In this document: piece by piece, positions 5,987 to 57,518 of the stretch
How the letters are laid out: the number at the start of each line of letters is the position of its first letter
Position numbering within the stretch: the stretch's first letter is position 1
Assembly: GCA_014800845.1 (NCBI GenBank)
Contig: JAAVFJ010000049.1
Coordinates: forward strand, 2,181 to 66,180
Reading direction: 5' to 3'
Length of the DNA stretch: 64,000 nucleotides
Origin: Bacteroidales bacterium
GTDB lineage: Bacteria > Bacteroidota > Bacteroidia > Bacteroidales > Muribaculaceae
Position numbers and translations under genes: made by a program
Notes under the pieces: model-generated
What the model was told of the DNA's origin: nothing
The model's database searches: none
The model's input: the letters and a program-made list of their open reading frames with translations, nothing else

Positions 5987-6925
5987 TCACACATAAGGCG
6001 CTCTAAGATGTTCTGCACGATGAATTAGGCCGAAATCAAAGTCTTCAAGCAGCTCATTTGCGGATACGGGTGTCGGCGTGGAGCGCAGCCCCGCTATGTT
6101 TGCAAGCATGCCTATCAGCTCCTCGGCACTGTAATTTTTACGTAGGGCCTCCATGCTCAACGAGGCGTCACGCTTGCTCAGTCGTCTGTCAGAGTCGGGC
6201 GAGAAAAGTAGCGGGACATGAGCAAACTCAGGGGCTGCAAAGCCAAGCAATTCATATATGTAAATCTGTTGAGCCGCTGATAGAAGCAGGTCAGAACCGC
6301 GGACTACTTCTGTTACTCCCATAAGCGCATCGTCGATTACTACTGCCAGCTGATAGCCAAAAGCGCCGTCAGCTCTGCGGACTACGAAATCGCCGCATTC
6401 CTGAGCAAGATTTACGCGTTGTTCCCCATACATTCTGTCTGTGAAATGAATATACCGGTTAGGCACAACGATACGGGTGCTATGAGGTGAGGTCGCTTCC
6501 GGAGCCGGGAATGAATCAGGTCTGCACTTTCCGGAATATATAATTCTGCCATCGCTCTGGTGAGGTGCTTGAGTGGCCATTATGTCCCCGCGCTTGCAGA
6601 AACAAGGGTAAGTGTGGCCGGAGAGCTTGGCCAGATATTGAGAATAAATCTCGCTCCGTCTGCTTTGACTGTAAGGACCATTCGCACCCTTGTCATCCAA
6701 GCCACCCTCATCCCACTCAAGACCGAGCCAAAGCAGGTCTTCTTCTATCTGCTTGGCATATTCCATGCGCGAGCGCTGCGTATCAAGGTCCTCGATACGC
6801 AATATCCATCGGCCACCGCGAGATTTAACCGATAGCCATGAAATCAGTGCGGTAAAAACATTGCCAAGGTGCATACGGCCGGTAGGGGAAGGGGCGAAGC
6901 GACCAACAGGAGGGGTTGAAAGCAT
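5987..6925 (-). CDS. gluQ: Glutamyl-Q tRNA(Asp) synthetase (GluRS catalytic domain only)
   Basis: RFAPSPTGRMHLGN, LRIEDLD, RLSKRD; 312 aa with no anticodon-binding domain. Confidence 0.9.
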   Translation of the reverse strand: MLSTPPVGRFAPSPTGRMHLGNVFTALISWLSVKSRGGRWILRIEDLDTQRSRMEYAKQIEEDLLWLGLEWDEGGLDDKGANGPYSQSRRSEIYSQYLAKLSGHTYPCFCKRGDIMATQAPHQSDGRIIYSGKCRPDSFPAPEATSPHSTRIVVPNRYIHFTDRMYGEQRVNLAQECGDFVVRRADGAFGYQLAVVIDDALMGVTEVVRGSDLLLSAAQQIYIYELLGFAAPEFAHVPLLFSPDSDRRLSKRDASLSMEALRKNYSAEELIGMLANIAGLRSTPTPVSANELLEDFDFGLIHRAEHLRAPYV

Positions 6926-7106
6926 AAGTATGAGTTCAAATTTTTACGAAATCAAATTCAAAAGCAAGAGCTATATGATGAACGTATAATTTTTAATTTT
7001 GGAGGTGATTTCACTCTGTCACTCAGGCGCATAGCTTGCCATGCGCCTGGAACAGCCTCGAAAATAGTTGCGCCTTATATGTCCATATTTTGGGGCCACT
7101 TACTTA
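6925..7106 (+). repeat. Degenerate long copy (182 bp) of the TAAGTAAG inverted-repeat family
   Basis: Left end TAAGTATGAGTTCAAATTTTTACGAAATCAAATTC aligns with the 57437 and 62535 copies. Interior TTTCACTCTGTCACTCA...GAACAGCCT aligns with the 46303 copy. Right end is CACTTACTTA. First base is shared with the gluQ ATG. Confidence 0.8.
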
Positions 7107-13301: not shown

Positions 13302-13964
13302 ATGTCCAACACAATACCTACTCCGCAGGAGCGACTCGCCGCTCTGCGTCAGCACACTGGAATGTCTCTCAAGAAAATGAGCGAAGAGGCCGGCATTAAA
13401 ACCGCCCAGACTCTTTATGAAATCAAGAATGGCAAGCACTCCTTTTCGAGCGAAGTGGCCAAAAAGCTTCATGAGCGTTGGCCGGAGCTAAGCCGCGGTT
13501 GGCTGATGAGCGGCGAAGGCGAAATGCTGCTTAACGCTGTATCTTCCCCGCAAGTAAAGCAGGGGGACTACGTGCCTTTGATGCCTGTGTCGGCGTTTGC
13601 CGGTCCCATCAAGTCCTTTTTGTCGGAAAGCGTGGAGTTGCGCGATTGCGAGTCAATCCTCTCCCCCTCGCCCGGTGCCGAACTCGCTATTCCTGTCTGT
13701 GGCGACAGCATGGAGCCAATGCTGCATGACGGTACCATCATATTCATAAAGAAAATCAATGACCGTGCCTTCATCCCCTGGGGGCAGACTATGGTTATTG
13801 ACACTGAAAATGGCGCGTTTGTAAAGGATATTTTCCCCGGCGACTCAGAAAATATCATTGCACGCAGCAAGAATCCACGCTATCCCGACATGCACATTCC
13901 TCACTCAAGCATCTACGGAATTTACAGAGTGGTCAACGCTATCCGTTCTTTTGGTGTAATGTAA
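13302..13964 (+). CDS. XRE-family HTH / S24 peptidase autocleaving repressor (LexA/CI-like)
   Basis: N-terminal HTH (RLAALRQHTGMSLKKMSEEAG), Ala-Gly cleavage site (SAFAGP), catalytic Ser (GDSMEP) and Lys (AFVKD). Confidence 0.88.
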   Translation: MSNTIPTPQERLAALRQHTGMSLKKMSEEAGIKTAQTLYEIKNGKHSFSSEVAKKLHERWPELSRGWLMSGEGEMLLNAVSSPQVKQGDYVPLMPVSAFAGPIKSFLSESVELRDCESILSPSPGAELAIPVCGDSMEPMLHDGTIIFIKKINDRAFIPWGQTMVIDTENGAFVKDIFPGDSENIIARSKNPRYPDMHIPHSSIYGIYRVVNAIRSFGVM

Positions 13965-13980
13965 ACAGCTCGTACTTATT

Positions 13981-14799
13981 ATGAAAAGAGCCATTATTTC
14001 CCTCACATTAGGTACACTTTTAACGATTCCCACAATGGCACAACAGAAAGTAATTCAGACAGCCGGGCGCGATGCACTTGGCGAATTTGCCCCTGAATTT
14101 GCAAGACTTAATGATGACATTCTTTTCGGCGAGGTCTGGAGTCGCAATGACCTGCTTTCTTTGCGCGACCGCAGCCTGGTGACTATAACCTGCCTTATCT
14201 CGCAGGGAATCACCGACTCATCGCTGAGATACCACCTGCAGGAGGCAAAGAAAAACGGAATCAACCGCACGGAAGCAGCCGAAATTATCACTCACATAGC
14301 ATTTTATGCCGGTTGGCCTAAGGCTTGGGCGGCGTTCAACCTTGCAAAGGAGGTTTGGAATGAGGACATAAAGGGCGACGATGCTCGCTCGGAATTTGAA
14401 CGCGAGATGTTTTTCCCGATAGGTGAACCGAACACAGCATACGCAAAATATTTTATCGGCAACAGCTATCTCGCTCCTGTTTCGCAGTCGCAGATACCAT
14501 TCTTCAATGTTACCTTTGAGCCCGGCTGCAGAAACAATTGGCACATTCATAAAGCCGATAAGGGCGGCGGCCAGATGCTCGTAGGTGTAGCGGGCCGCGG
14601 ATGGTATCAGGAGGAGGGGAAAGAGCCCGTAGAGATACTTCCCGGCACAGTAATTCATATCCCCGCCGGAGTGAAGCATTGGCATGGAGCCGCCAAAGAT
14701 TCCTGGTTCGCTCACTTGGCTTTTGAAGTGCCGGGGGAGAACACCGAGAATGTCTGGCTTGAACCGGTCACAGCCGAGCAATATGATTTACTGCCGTGA
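13981..14799 (+). CDS. Carboxymuconolactone decarboxylase (AhpD-like) + cupin fusion protein
   Basis: LSLRDRSLVT...HIAFYAGWPKAWAAF CMD motif; C-terminal cupin NNWHIH...KHWHGA. Confidence 0.88.
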   Translation: MKRAIISLTLGTLLTIPTMAQQKVIQTAGRDALGEFAPEFARLNDDILFGEVWSRNDLLSLRDRSLVTITCLISQGITDSSLRYHLQEAKKNGINRTEAAEIITHIAFYAGWPKAWAAFNLAKEVWNEDIKGDDARSEFEREMFFPIGEPNTAYAKYFIGNSYLAPVSQSQIPFFNVTFEPGCRNNWHIHKADKGGGQMLVGVAGRGWYQEEGKEPVEILPGTVIHIPAGVKHWHGAAKDSWFAHLAFEVPGENTENVWLEPVTAEQYDLLP

Positions 14800-44521: not shown

Positions 44522-46303
44522 TTAATCAACGGTGAACTTCAATCCATCGTAAGCCAGCTTTACGTTAGAGGGCAACTTGCCGGAAACATCCTGATGCTTC
44601 CCCATGTCATGACAAATATGAGTGAGATAGGCTTGCTCCGGCTTTATCTTTTCGATAACCGCCAAAGCTTCCTCCACAGTCAGGTGGCTGAAGTGGGGAG
44701 TGTAGCGCAACGCATTTATTACTAGCACCTTTACCCCTTCAAGCTTTTCAAATTCTTCTTCGGGGATCGTCTTAGCGTCAGTGATATAGGCGAAATTGCC
44801 TATTCTATAGCCAATTATAGGTAGCTGGGCATGCATTACATTTATCGGAACAATCTTCACTCCGGAGAAATAGAAGGGCTCATTGCCCACTTCATGAATC
44901 TCAAAGCCGGGCACTCCGGGATACTTATGCTCACGGAAACAGTAATCAAGCCGGCGACGCAGGTCATCAGCCACGTGCTTGAGAGCGTAGAGAGGCATAC
45001 GTTTATTGAGGCAGTAGGGGCGAAGGTCATCTATTCCACCTACGTGGTCGTAATGCTGATGAGTAATCAGCGTAGCATCAATGTCGTAGACGCCTGCTCT
45101 TATAGCTTGCTCTCTGAAATCAGGCGACGCATCCAGTAGAAGTGTCAGCCCGTGGGTCTTTATGAGCGCGGATGCGCGCAGACGCTTGTCATGCTTGTCA
45201 GGCGATGTACAAACATCGCATTGGCATGCCGGCTCCGGCACACCTTTGCTGGTTCCGCTCCCCAGAATCTCAACATGAACTGACGTGTCAATAAAATTCA
45301 CCTCAGGCTGCAGCCAGACCCCAAATTTTCGGTGCACTGTCAGCTGAATGTGACGACAAAGCGCGCTCACAGAGATGCCGGTAGCATTATTGCGATTTAC
45401 TATAATAAGGCACTGCTTTTTATAAACAGCTGCGCCACCTATGCTGCAACCTTTTAAACCGGCATGCTCAATAAGCCAACCTGCGGGAATCTTTACTTTT
45501 TCGTCAGGCAAATCGTAGCTGGGCACATCATAGCCATGCTTCAATATTTCAGCCTCGTAATAACGACGGCGCACAATGGGATTCTTAAAGAAGCTTCCTG
45601 CGCTGCCTAATACTTTGGGGTCAGGCAGTTTGGAATTGCGAATCTCATTTATTTCCGCCACGACTTCTTTTAGAGAAGGGGTGTGGCCAAGTCTCTCTGC
45701 AAGAGATTTAAGAGGTCCGTAATCCAGATTTTCGCCTGTGGCAGAAGGTGTTAACCGGAAGCAAACTCTTAAGACATAGTATCTGCCTTTGCCTTCATGC
45801 TTGAAGAAACTGTCTCTGTAAGCAAAACGACATTCTTCATTAGTGAAGTTTACTATTTTGTGAGTCAATCGGTCGTAACACTCAGCTTTGAAAATTACAT
45901 CACCGGCTTCTACACCATAGGCGCCTACATTCTGAATTACTGAAGCACCTACCTCGCCGGGTATGCCTGTAAGATTTTCCAGTCCTGCCAAATTTCGCTC
46001 GACACAGAAGTCTATTAAATCTTGCCACGCTTCTCCGGCACCGGCTATGACATAGACAGTTGATTCGTTCTTGCGATATTCAGTTAATCCTTTAACTTTG
46101 GAATGAAGAATCAATCCATCAAAATCATGGATAAACAGCAGGTTGGAGCCGCCTCCTATGTGGAGCACTTCGTTTTGCTGATACTTCGGTGTGCGCATAA
46201 TGGCCTCAAGCTCCTTTACAGAGGAGTATTCGGCAAAATACTTGGCCTTGACCGGCACACCCAAAGTGGTGAGGGAAGTTATATCGTAGTCTGATTTAAT
46301 CAT
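44522..46303 (-). CDS. murB: Fusion of UDP-N-acetylenolpyruvoylglucosamine reductase (MurB) and a PhnP-like metallo-beta-lactamase-fold hydrolase
   Basis: N-half: IGGGSNLLF, GIPG..GA..IQNVGAYG, GSAGSFFKNP, LQPEVNFI. C-half (from ~45285): LGSGTSKGVP, THQHYDHVGG. One continuous frame; start taken as ATG 46303. Confidence 0.9.
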   Translation of the reverse strand: MIKSDYDITSLTTLGVPVKAKYFAEYSSVKELEAIMRTPKYQQNEVLHIGGGSNLLFIHDFDGLILHSKVKGLTEYRKNESTVYVIAGAGEAWQDLIDFCVERNLAGLENLTGIPGEVGASVIQNVGAYGVEAGDVIFKAECYDRLTHKIVNFTNEECRFAYRDSFFKHEGKGRYYVLRVCFRLTPSATGENLDYGPLKSLAERLGHTPSLKEVVAEINEIRNSKLPDPKVLGSAGSFFKNPIVRRRYYEAEILKHGYDVPSYDLPDEKVKIPAGWLIEHAGLKGCSIGGAAVYKKQCLIIVNRNNATGISVSALCRHIQLTVHRKFGVWLQPEVNFIDTSVHVEILGSGTSKGVPEPACQCDVCTSPDKHDKRLRASALIKTHGLTLLLDASPDFREQAIRAGVYDIDATLITHQHYDHVGGIDDLRPYCLNKRMPLYALKHVADDLRRRLDYCFREHKYPGVPGFEIHEVGNEPFYFSGVKIVPINVMHAQLPIIGYRIGNFAYITDAKTIPEEEFEKLEGVKVLVINALRYTPHFSHLTVEEALAVIEKIKPEQAYLTHICHDMGKHQDVSGKLPSNVKLAYDGLKFTVD

Positions 46304-46500
46304 AAGTAAGTGTTCAAATTTAAACAATAGTAAAATATGAATAAGTAAGGTTTTAATTTTTCATACAATCTGCTGTTTCTTTTTTGCCGTTTTCACTTTG
46401 TTGCTCAACCGCTTAGCTCGCTAAGCTCCTTCGCTCCACAGCGAAACAGCCTAAAAAATAAGCTCGCATATTGTATAAATTAAATTTGAACACTTACTTA
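46303..46500 (+). mobile_element. 198-bp MITE-like element with perfect 21-bp terminal inverted repeats (longest, best-preserved member of the TAAGTAAG family)
   Basis: TAAGTAAGTGTTCAAATTTAA (46303-23) is the exact reverse complement of TTAAATTTGAACACTTACTTA (46480-500). TA at both outer ends; internal hairpin CTTAG-CTCG-CTAAG; no coding capacity. Confidence 0.75.
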
Positions 46501-46501
46501 T

Positions 46502-47434
46502 TTATTTTCTGAAAGTTACTAACAGTCCATCTTCAAATCTGAGAAAAATACCATTGGCATAAGTCCAGATGTCTATGGTCTTGGAATAATCGCGCCCGGT
46601 ATCCGTGTCATCCGGGCTACCTAAAGCAAGCCGACATTCAGTCTTGGTCATGCCTAATGATACACGTCCGTTGCGGATGTTTTCCCAATTTTCATCAGAG
46701 ATGTTAGCAAAATTTTTTCGGGGATTGTCTATTGCAAAAAGCGAATGAAAGGGGCGACTGGCCAGCGTGCCTTGGTTCTGAGTCATGCTGATATATGCCG
46801 TGTCCCCCTTTTCATCTACAAATTTTATTAGAAACGGAAGATTTTCAGTGCCGCTGAGTACGTCAAGCACTTTTACGGCTTCAAACTTTCTTCCGGCAAC
46901 CTGTTTGCCATCAGAAGTCTTCCATTCCGGAGTTCGAGTCCAAAGAGTTCTGCCTCTCAGCTTCGAGGCCAGCTCCTGAATGAGCGTTTCATCAATAAGG
47001 AAGGGCAGCTCCGTACTGATGATTTTAGCAGTGTCCGATTTTGTAGAGTTGTAGCGACAAATATTGCCAGCCGGGTCTCTGAACAGAAGGTTGACCCTCT
47101 GAGTACCGCCGGGCGTCGGGATGAGCTCGAAAGCCTCATACTTCAAAGTATTTCCCTGCAAGGTGTCAGGCACTTGGTCAAACACCATAGCAACTTTCGT
47201 AGCATCAACATTAAACTCACGACCGCGAGCCCATCGTGATAGGGGAGCCCCATGTATGTCAGCCATGAAAGCTTCCTCTTTGGAGATTCTGTGTGTAATC
47301 TCTCTATCCTTCTTACTCAAGCTGATATGCCCGGTGTGCTCAATGCCGGTGAAACAGCTTTGAAACATTAAGCCCGAGAGCATGACAACAACAGTCATGC
47401 TTGCGGGCTTAAATATTTTGCTAAAGCCTCTCAT
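46502..47434 (-). CDS. Hypothetical lipoprotein with C-terminal SmpA/BamE-like motif
   Basis: Lipobox-like FQSC; C-terminal LGMTKTECRLALGSP...WTY. Start uncertain (47443 GTG, 47434 ATG or later). Confidence 0.7.
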   Translation of the reverse strand: MRGFSKIFKPASMTVVVMLSGLMFQSCFTGIEHTGHISLSKKDREITHRISKEEAFMADIHGAPLSRWARGREFNVDATKVAMVFDQVPDTLQGNTLKYEAFELIPTPGGTQRVNLLFRDPAGNICRYNSTKSDTAKIISTELPFLIDETLIQELASKLRGRTLWTRTPEWKTSDGKQVAGRKFEAVKVLDVLSGTENLPFLIKFVDEKGDTAYISMTQNQGTLASRPFHSLFAIDNPRKNFANISDENWENIRNGRVSLGMTKTECRLALGSPDDTDTGRDYSKTIDIWTYANGIFLRFEDGLLVTFRK

Positions 47435-56995: not shown

Positions 56996-57439
56996 ATGAA
57001 GATTAAAGTGAAACGTTTTGAAGAGCTCACCACTTCTGAATTATATGAAATTCTGCGTTGCAGAGCTGAAGTGTTCATCGTAGGCCAGCACTGCAACTAT
57101 CAGGATATTGATGGTGCGGACAAAGCATCGACACACATATATTTCGAAGAGGATGGTTCTATCTTAGCTTACCTTAGAGTGATTGACCCGGGAGTGAAAT
57201 TCCCGGCGGCATCTATCGGACGCGTCCTTACCATGAATGAGTTTCGCGGTCATGGTTTGGCCAGAAAGCTGATGCTTGAGGGTATATCAGTAGCACAAAA
57301 GCTCTCTGATACTATTGAGATAGAGGCTCAGTCATATCTGGTTGACTTCTACCGGTCACTCGGTTTTCGCGAAACTTCCGAGGAATATCTCATTGATGGG
57401 CTTCCTCACATCAGCATGGTTTTAAATATTTCAAAATAA
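56996..57439 (+). CDS. GNAT-family acetyltransferase (ElaA-like)
   Basis: LYEILRCRAEVFIVGQ, SIGRV...FRGHGLARKLM, AQSYLVDFYRSLGF. Confidence 0.9.
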   Translation: MKIKVKRFEELTTSELYEILRCRAEVFIVGQHCNYQDIDGADKASTHIYFEEDGSILAYLRVIDPGVKFPAASIGRVLTMNEFRGHGLARKLMLEGISVAQKLSDTIEIEAQSYLVDFYRSLGFRETSEEYLIDGLPHISMVLNISK

Positions 57440-57518
57440 GTAAGTGTCAAGAATTATATGTTCAAGATATAACACTTACTTCAGAATTTGATATCGTTTA
57501 ATTTTTGAGACTTACTTA
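57437..57518 (-). repeat. Short copy (82 bp) of the TAAGTAAG inverted-repeat family
   Basis: TAAGTAAGTGTCAAGAAT...ATTTTTGAGACTTACTTA; starts in the GNAT TAA stop and ends 5 nt before the next ATG. Confidence 0.85.

Follow-up and report, generated by a model that had tools for sequence, protein, structure and literature searches.

The question raised by the locus considered here is how the essential cell-wall gene murB has come to begin on the last base of a repeated sequence, and how it is expressed in that position. The locus lies in a 64,000-nt stretch of the genome of a Bacteroidales bacterium of the family Muribaculaceae (GenBank assembly GCA_014800845.1; hereafter the window), and the genome comprises 2.45 Mb in 82 contigs with a G+C content of 52.7%. 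The 198-nt gap between the TAA of a lipoprotein gene (46502-46504, minus strand) and the ATG of murB (46301-46303, minus strand) is wholly occupied by a single element of 198 bp, TAAGTAAGT...ACTTACTTA (46303-46500), and the A of the murB ATG coincides with the final base either of the element or of the duplicated TA. This segment is probably a fixed, non-autonomous foldback miniature inverted-repeat transposable element (MITE) of about 195 bp, confined to one genus and related to IS630, which was inserted at a TA of an operon junction and through which murB is mainly read.

The element was delimited by an nhmmer family search with extraction of the copies and by BLAST against its own genome. 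Its “left” (ML) end at 46303 faces murB, and its “right” (MR) end, at 46500, points to the stop of the lipoprotein gene. The left terminal inverted repeat arm (ATAAGTAAGTGTTCAAATTTAA; 46302-46323, plus strand) and the right arm (46480-46501, plus strand), which is its exact reverse complement, are 22 nt each and 100% complementary; an arm match of this length and identity was obtained in 0 of 100 shuffles. Of each arm, 21 nt are element sequence, the outermost A/T pair being contributed by the flank. An initial annotation, made from the sequence alone, had described perfect terminal inverted repeats and a repeat copy filling nearly the whole gap from the lipoprotein stop to the murB ATG, and both descriptions are borne out. 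Further inside, a third copy of the terminal TAAGTAAG motif (46342-46349, plus strand) marks a segment of ~30 extra nt that is responsible for the asymmetry of the left arm and stays unpaired in the predicted RNA fold, and a G+C-richer central palindrome, GCTGTTTC...GAAACAGC (46372-46450), forms an inner hairpin. The sole open reading frame that crosses the element is an upstream extension of murB from a TTG. Within the element, Rfam gave no match at the gathering threshold or at E<=1, no protein signal was seen, and a scan for sigma-70-type promoters and terminators returned nothing.

The same ~195-bp element was located at 34 loci in the genome by BLAST and iterated nhmmer, many of them cut by contig ends, and about six internally deleted mini forms of ~80 bp were found as well. 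Each copy is hit by the family profile on both strands, which means that the element is for the most part palindromic; the asymmetry of the family resides in the left arm, with its ~30 extra nt including the third TAAGTAAG. The family end consensus is GTTTAAATTTGAA(T/C)ACTTACTTA. About 28 copies constitute the main subfamily, with ends TAAGTAAGT(A/G)TCAAAAATTAA, and the murB-junction copy belongs to a four-copy subfamily (subfamily B), in which its relatives are C48:6209-6407 (96% identity), C53:9436-9632 (88.5%) and the more diverged C5:35659-35834 (C numbers denote contigs of this assembly). The initial annotation had labeled the murB-junction copy the youngest-looking of the repeats; this label is not sustained, since its nearest relative is 96% identical (93% with flanks) and identities within the main subfamily reach 95.6%. 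Perfect arms are also found in the C48 copy and so characterize the subfamily. Many genomes of this genus contain the family, which was found in 0 of 16 other genera of the order. An exact-pattern scan detected more than 112 loci, all in Muribaculaceae-type metagenome-assembled genomes from voles, mice and humans, and a spacing of 180-199 bp dominates among the end pairs of 112 loci from other genomes. No full-length element with MITE ends was found in the own genome, and there were no end pairs separated by 0.6-4 kb in 124 fetched loci.

A parent was located through a search for the Pfam family DDE_3 (PF13358, the IS630-type transposase core), with matches above the cut-off, which revealed two remnants in the own genome and, in a sister species, one full insertion sequence (IS). 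Each remnant (C58:~19-291 and C77:~13827-14084) codes for a C-terminal transposase piece of ~85-90 residues, and in both the stop codon is followed within 10-20 nt by ...TTAATTTTTACGAG(W)TACTTA, the same type of terminus as the ...TTAATTTTTGACACTTACTTA of the MITE. The full IS (L134:1381-2505; 1125 bp) has the ends TAAGTAACTGTTCAAAATTA and TAAGTGAGTAGTCAAATTTA, which are identical to the arm at the murB junction at 18/21 positions (left end) and 17/21 positions. About 30 related ISs of 1.11-1.13 kb, with ends beginning TAAGTA(A/G), are present across the Bacteroidales, and autonomous partners occur in sister species and in other members of the order. Because its ends match those of an IS630-family IS and remnants with similar termini persist in its own genome, the element is an IS630/Tc1-mariner-type MITE; it would have been derived from, or mobilized by, such an insertion sequence, and its perfect inverted repeats would be the transposase-binding ends. 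Members of the IS630/Tc1-mariner family duplicate a TA target. Every copy of the MITE is bounded by TA...TA without a longer flanking direct repeat, the TA also being part of the inverted repeat; from the family rule and the TA at both ends of every copy, we infer that TA was duplicated upon insertion. As a separate observation, the clade of the parent IS (~1.12 kb; L134, L137, L188, L142 and others) seems to need a frameshift between the N-terminal helix-turn-helix frame and the DDE frame. In L134, the frame break lies at the T-run GTTTTTTAG and could reflect either a programmed frameshift or decay.

MITEs are abundant in the Bacteroidota, tens of thousands having been counted in large censuses (PMC11602168), and no published description of this family was found in the literature. 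The element is of an ordinary kind.

The history of the insertion can be read from relatives. The order purL-lipoprotein-murB is kept in five sister species, and the element is absent from the junction in all five. The lipoprotein stop and the murB start of these species either overlap as ATGA or are separated by about 35, 35-45, 57 or 68 nt; given such short gaps without the element, the insertion split a tight operon junction. Both the C-terminus of the lipoprotein (...FRK*) and the N-terminus of MurB (MIKSDYDITSLTT) align with those of the sister species, so both codons at the junction are native. Removal of the element and one TA leaves TAA-AT-ATG, which places the insertion in an operon junction of 0-2 nt, and the junction after precise excision would read TAAATATG. 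The element would thus have entered at the TA of TAA-A-TA-TG, in a 0-2-nt gap between the two genes of the operon, and the native stop and start codons are intact because they are restored by the ends of the element (TAAGTAAGT...ACTTACTTA, a duplicated TA being presumed).

Comparison within the species indicates that the insertion is fixed. In two assemblies of other samples from the European Nucleotide Archive (ENA), the element is present, oriented identically and differing by one single-nucleotide polymorphism, against a background divergence of 0.76% (45 differences/5897 nt). The insertion is accordingly older than the split of strains 0.76% apart, which also speaks against the label of youngest-looking copy. 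Two Logan assemblies break within the element yet show identical junctions. Two other copies of the family are equally uniform across samples, with no polymorphism of presence or orientation. A search of metagenome contigs for the empty site gave no match; the occupied-junction control gave none either, the species being absent there, so this search is uninformative.

The same uniformity bears on the suggestion of the initial annotation that the segment could be an invertible DNA switch. Inversion by a site-specific recombinase of the 156 bp enclosed by the repeats would then toggle murB or an antisense transcript. The size of the segment and the length of its inverted repeats do resemble those of invertible segments, and the inner sequence is asymmetric, so that an inversion would be detectable: the inverted junction would join the murB flank to ...TTTAATTTATACAAT. 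However, only one orientation is present in six assemblies from five samples, that is, in this one and all five other assemblies of the locus, and the same is true of all assemblies of the two other copies, although a rare minority orientation could escape a comparison of assemblies. Moreover, dozens of copies of a transposon family with an IS630 parent share these repeats as their ends, and no recombinase gene is adjacent to the element, its neighbors (purL, murB and gcvT/H/P) being metabolic. As the element is largely palindromic with identical arms, a flip would swap like for like at the ends. An invertible switch is thus extremely improbable, and this part of the initial annotation is abandoned.

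It was also proposed that the element could act as a mobile promoter, because a box, TAAATTTG, conforming to the TAnnTTTG consensus of the Bacteroidota -7 element points outward in both arms. The boxes are present as described. The one toward murB (46322-46315, minus strand) has its G separated by 11 nt from the A of the murB start codon (46303), and the other (46481-46488, plus strand) is antisense to the lipoprotein gene and points into its 3′ end. It also holds that the -33 element is missing: there is no TTTG 19-21 nt upstream of either box, and no properly spaced -33/-7 pair was found by eye deeper in the left arm. Spacings between boxes and start codons were collected for the whole genome with approximate gene calls. 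Sense-strand TAnnTTTG boxes are enriched over antisense ones upstream of genes, which shows that the genome uses this box and favors a promoter reading of the exact match toward murB. By contrast, the spacings from the G of the box to the ATG peak at 4, 7 or 9 nt and at 17-30 nt, with a trough at 10-16 nt; a spacing of 11 nt occurs at murB alone. A transcription start ~4-5 nt beyond the box, which the 4-nt peak, a spacing of the leaderless type, would suggest, would leave murB a leader of only ~6-7 nt, an unusual geometry. Apart from murB, the sharp peaks at 4, 7 and 9 nt suggest that many mRNAs in this genome are leaderless or nearly so.

The origin of the box likewise tells against a recruited promoter. 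Family-wide, a box lies 12 nt from the end in 59/82 left arms and 46/82 right arms, and a TAAATTTG-type box is present at the ends of the parent IS (L134) as well. Being part of the family-wide end consensus and of the parent IS, the box is an inherited end sequence rather than one acquired as a promoter. Together with the unfavorable spacing, this inherited origin lowers the odds that TAAATTTG is a working promoter of murB.

Evidence for some effect of the element on the gene downstream comes from its orientation. Among element ends located 30 nt or less from a gene start, the left arm accounts for 16/16 cases in this genome (binomial p = 3e-5) and for 16/23 cases in other genomes, which together amount to 32/39, i.e., 32:7 (p = 7e-5). 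Beyond 30 nt from a gene start, there is no arm bias (25 vs 28). Six genes of this genome, murB included, begin on the last base of the element (CA|TAAGT..., giving TATG), the stop codons of eight upstream genes lie no more than 11 nt from the right end, several being provided by the TAA of the element itself, and 6/7 tight stop-element-start junctions are arranged right-to-left. Given the 32:7 bias, some direction-dependent effect on the expression of the downstream gene is likely. As the box is present in both arms, it cannot by itself account for the asymmetry; because both arms end alike, the bias must stem from the extra segment of the left arm.

Three readings fit this bias: a promoter in the left arm; ribosome loading on read-through RNA at an unpaired bulge of that arm, or opening of the stem by RNase III; or the purging by selection of the opposite orientation, which would be polar. 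According to the first, the element is a mobile promoter or expression cassette, and its left arm (through the terminal TAAATTTG or the ~30-nt segment) would start outward transcription that drives murB, which the 198-bp hairpin would have severed from the operon promoter, as with the outward promoters of Correia elements. In addition to the box and its genome-wide use, the placement of the left arm toward gene starts (16:0 here and 32:7 overall within 30 nt, with no bias beyond) agrees with this reading, as do at least 11 genes that begin on the last base of the element and three copies that lie between divergent genes with the left end within 16 nt of a start. Furthermore, a transcript begun in the arm would release the AUG from the 22-bp stem described below. 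Nevertheless, the -33 TTTG is lacking at the proper distance, the implied leader is only ~6-7 nt, the spacing falls in the class (10-16 nt) that is rarest in the genome, and the occurrence of the box in both arms leaves the asymmetry unexplained. The main subfamily of this genome shows the same bias without the exact box (TAATTTTTG), and for the divergent gene pair that was examined, a plausible native promoter is situated beyond the element. A promoter carried by the left arm is fairly unlikely to be what drives murB.

The second reading operates at the level of RNA. The fold predicted for the element in the mRNA sense (-63 kcal/mol, z = -5.96) is one in which a 22-bp basal stem takes in the AU of the murB AUG and the extra left-arm segment is unpaired just upstream of this stem. 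If the element is co-transcribed, the A/U-rich bulge of ~30 nt could serve as a ribosome standby site, or cleavage of the long stem by RNase III could yield a separate murB mRNA, whereas in the opposite orientation translation would be blocked or transcription terminated. Correia hairpins are known to be processed by RNase III. The position of the unpaired segment directly upstream of the basal stem and the right-to-left arrangement of 6/7 tight junctions are in line with such a cassette, but it is purely inferential, and no terminator with a U-tract was detected in either orientation of the murB-junction copy. It is judged unlikely.

It is also tempting to speculate, more broadly, that the asymmetric left arm is a portable, orientation-specific expression module, acting as a weak promoter or as a standby or processing site, and that its combination with ends that rebuild codons would permit insertion exactly on start codons, that of the essential murB included, and inside translationally coupled operons without loss of the host. 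This idea, built on sequence features, remains tentative, although it may deserve slightly more credence than either specific form taken singly.

Read-through combined with an orientation filter is ranked as the most likely of the three readings of the bias. In this model, murB would still be transcribed mainly from upstream, through the element; in the read-through transcript, the element would fold into a long hairpin with a basal stem that includes the AU of the AUG; and the element would be retained in one orientation only, the one that permits or assists expression of the gene downstream. Several observations weigh against the model of a fixed MITE with read-through. Read-through mRNA would bury the AUG of the essential murB in a perfect 22-bp stem, which favors internal initiation of transcription or processing, and the strong orientation bias means that the element is not neutral for the downstream gene. 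In addition, no empty site was seen within the species for any copy in the strain comparison of three copies, and no intact transposase is encoded in this assembly, which contains only the two C-terminal remnants. Given the missing transposase, the MITEs are probably stranded at present.

Known systems provide a frame for these features. IS630-derived MITEs such as MITEEc1/ERIC of enterobacteria, RUP of Streptococcus pneumoniae (with IS630-Spn1) and Nezha of cyanobacteria are likewise short, non-coding, multi-copy and intergenic, and they share with the present element IS630-like ends, TA at both ends, a foldback RNA structure (here predicted) and co-transcription with neighboring genes (here presumed). 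Unlike them, the Muribaculaceae element is confined to one Muribaculaceae genus, has no sequence similarity to these families, and is distinguished by an asymmetric left arm with an extra internal terminus, a gene-start bias and placement on stop and start codons. The comparison of the initial annotation with Correia elements (CREE/NEMIS of Neisseria) was right in kind, the element being a multi-copy MITE with IS630-family ends. Both are ~100-200 bp long with inverted ends of ~25 nt, gene-adjacent insertion, promoter-like boxes at the ends, TA duplication (here presumed) and a processable hairpin RNA (here a predicted fold), a resemblance that is functional only. Their sequences are not known to be related. 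Moreover, Correia boxes are sigma-70 -10/-35 promoters with mapped activity, whereas a Bacteroidota -7-like box without a -33 is read here from the letters of the arms; a parent IS630-type IS is identifiable for the Muribaculaceae element. Invertible promoters of Bacteroidales (Mpi/Tsr-type shufflons, capsule and other loci) are similar in having ~150-200 bp, repeats of ~20 nt upstream of a gene and TAnnTTTG, but the repeats of the present element occur at dozens of loci, in one orientation in the assemblies and with no associated recombinase.

Gene-adjacent MITEs are common, and what is notable here is the placement in an operon junction of 0-2 nt, on the start codon of an essential cell-wall gene. 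If the left arm supplies a promoter or an RNA feature that enables translation, the family would represent a widespread, unannotated source of regulatory change in a dominant gut family of rodents and humans, and dozens of genes per genome would have been rewired in the Muribaculaceae if the idea of an expression module is true. On the practical side, the copies break assemblies and can mislead the annotation of start codons. At least 13 contigs of this assembly end within a copy of the family (C36, C40, C68, C63, C27, C30, C39, C55, C57, C73, C74, C75 and C9), which makes the MITE a main cause of assembly breaks and implies that the true copy number is above 34.

The genes on either side of the element were characterized by Pfam. 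The gene downstream (44522-46303, minus strand; 593 aa) encodes MurB (FAD_binding_4 and MurB_C) fused to a metallo-beta-lactamase-fold domain, in agreement with the murB fusion named in the initial annotation, and its start is supported by homologs and by the gene call on record. The in-frame fusion partner is a Lactamase_B_2/PhnP-like metallo-hydrolase, and the fusion is also on record in other assemblies of the species. The lipoprotein gene (46502-47398, minus strand; 298 aa as on record) matches no Pfam family, and its native stop codon, TAA, is separated from the element by 1 nt; purL is situated beyond it.

Other copies of the family lie both inside and outside the window. An older, diverged copy (6925-7106) provides through its left end the T of TATG at a glutamyl-Q-tRNA-synthetase-like gene; synteny around this copy is not conserved in the sister species. 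An 82-bp internally deleted mini form (57437-57518) is located between a stop codon and a start codon. Outside the window, two further tight stop-element-start junctions are found at C9:170671-172000 and C9:98548-99270, one upstream of a HipA-like kinase gene and the other between an AAA_15 ATPase gene and its 174-aa partner. The MITE presumably splits co-regulated gene pairs at these junctions too, and the copies at both are fixed in four to six samples.

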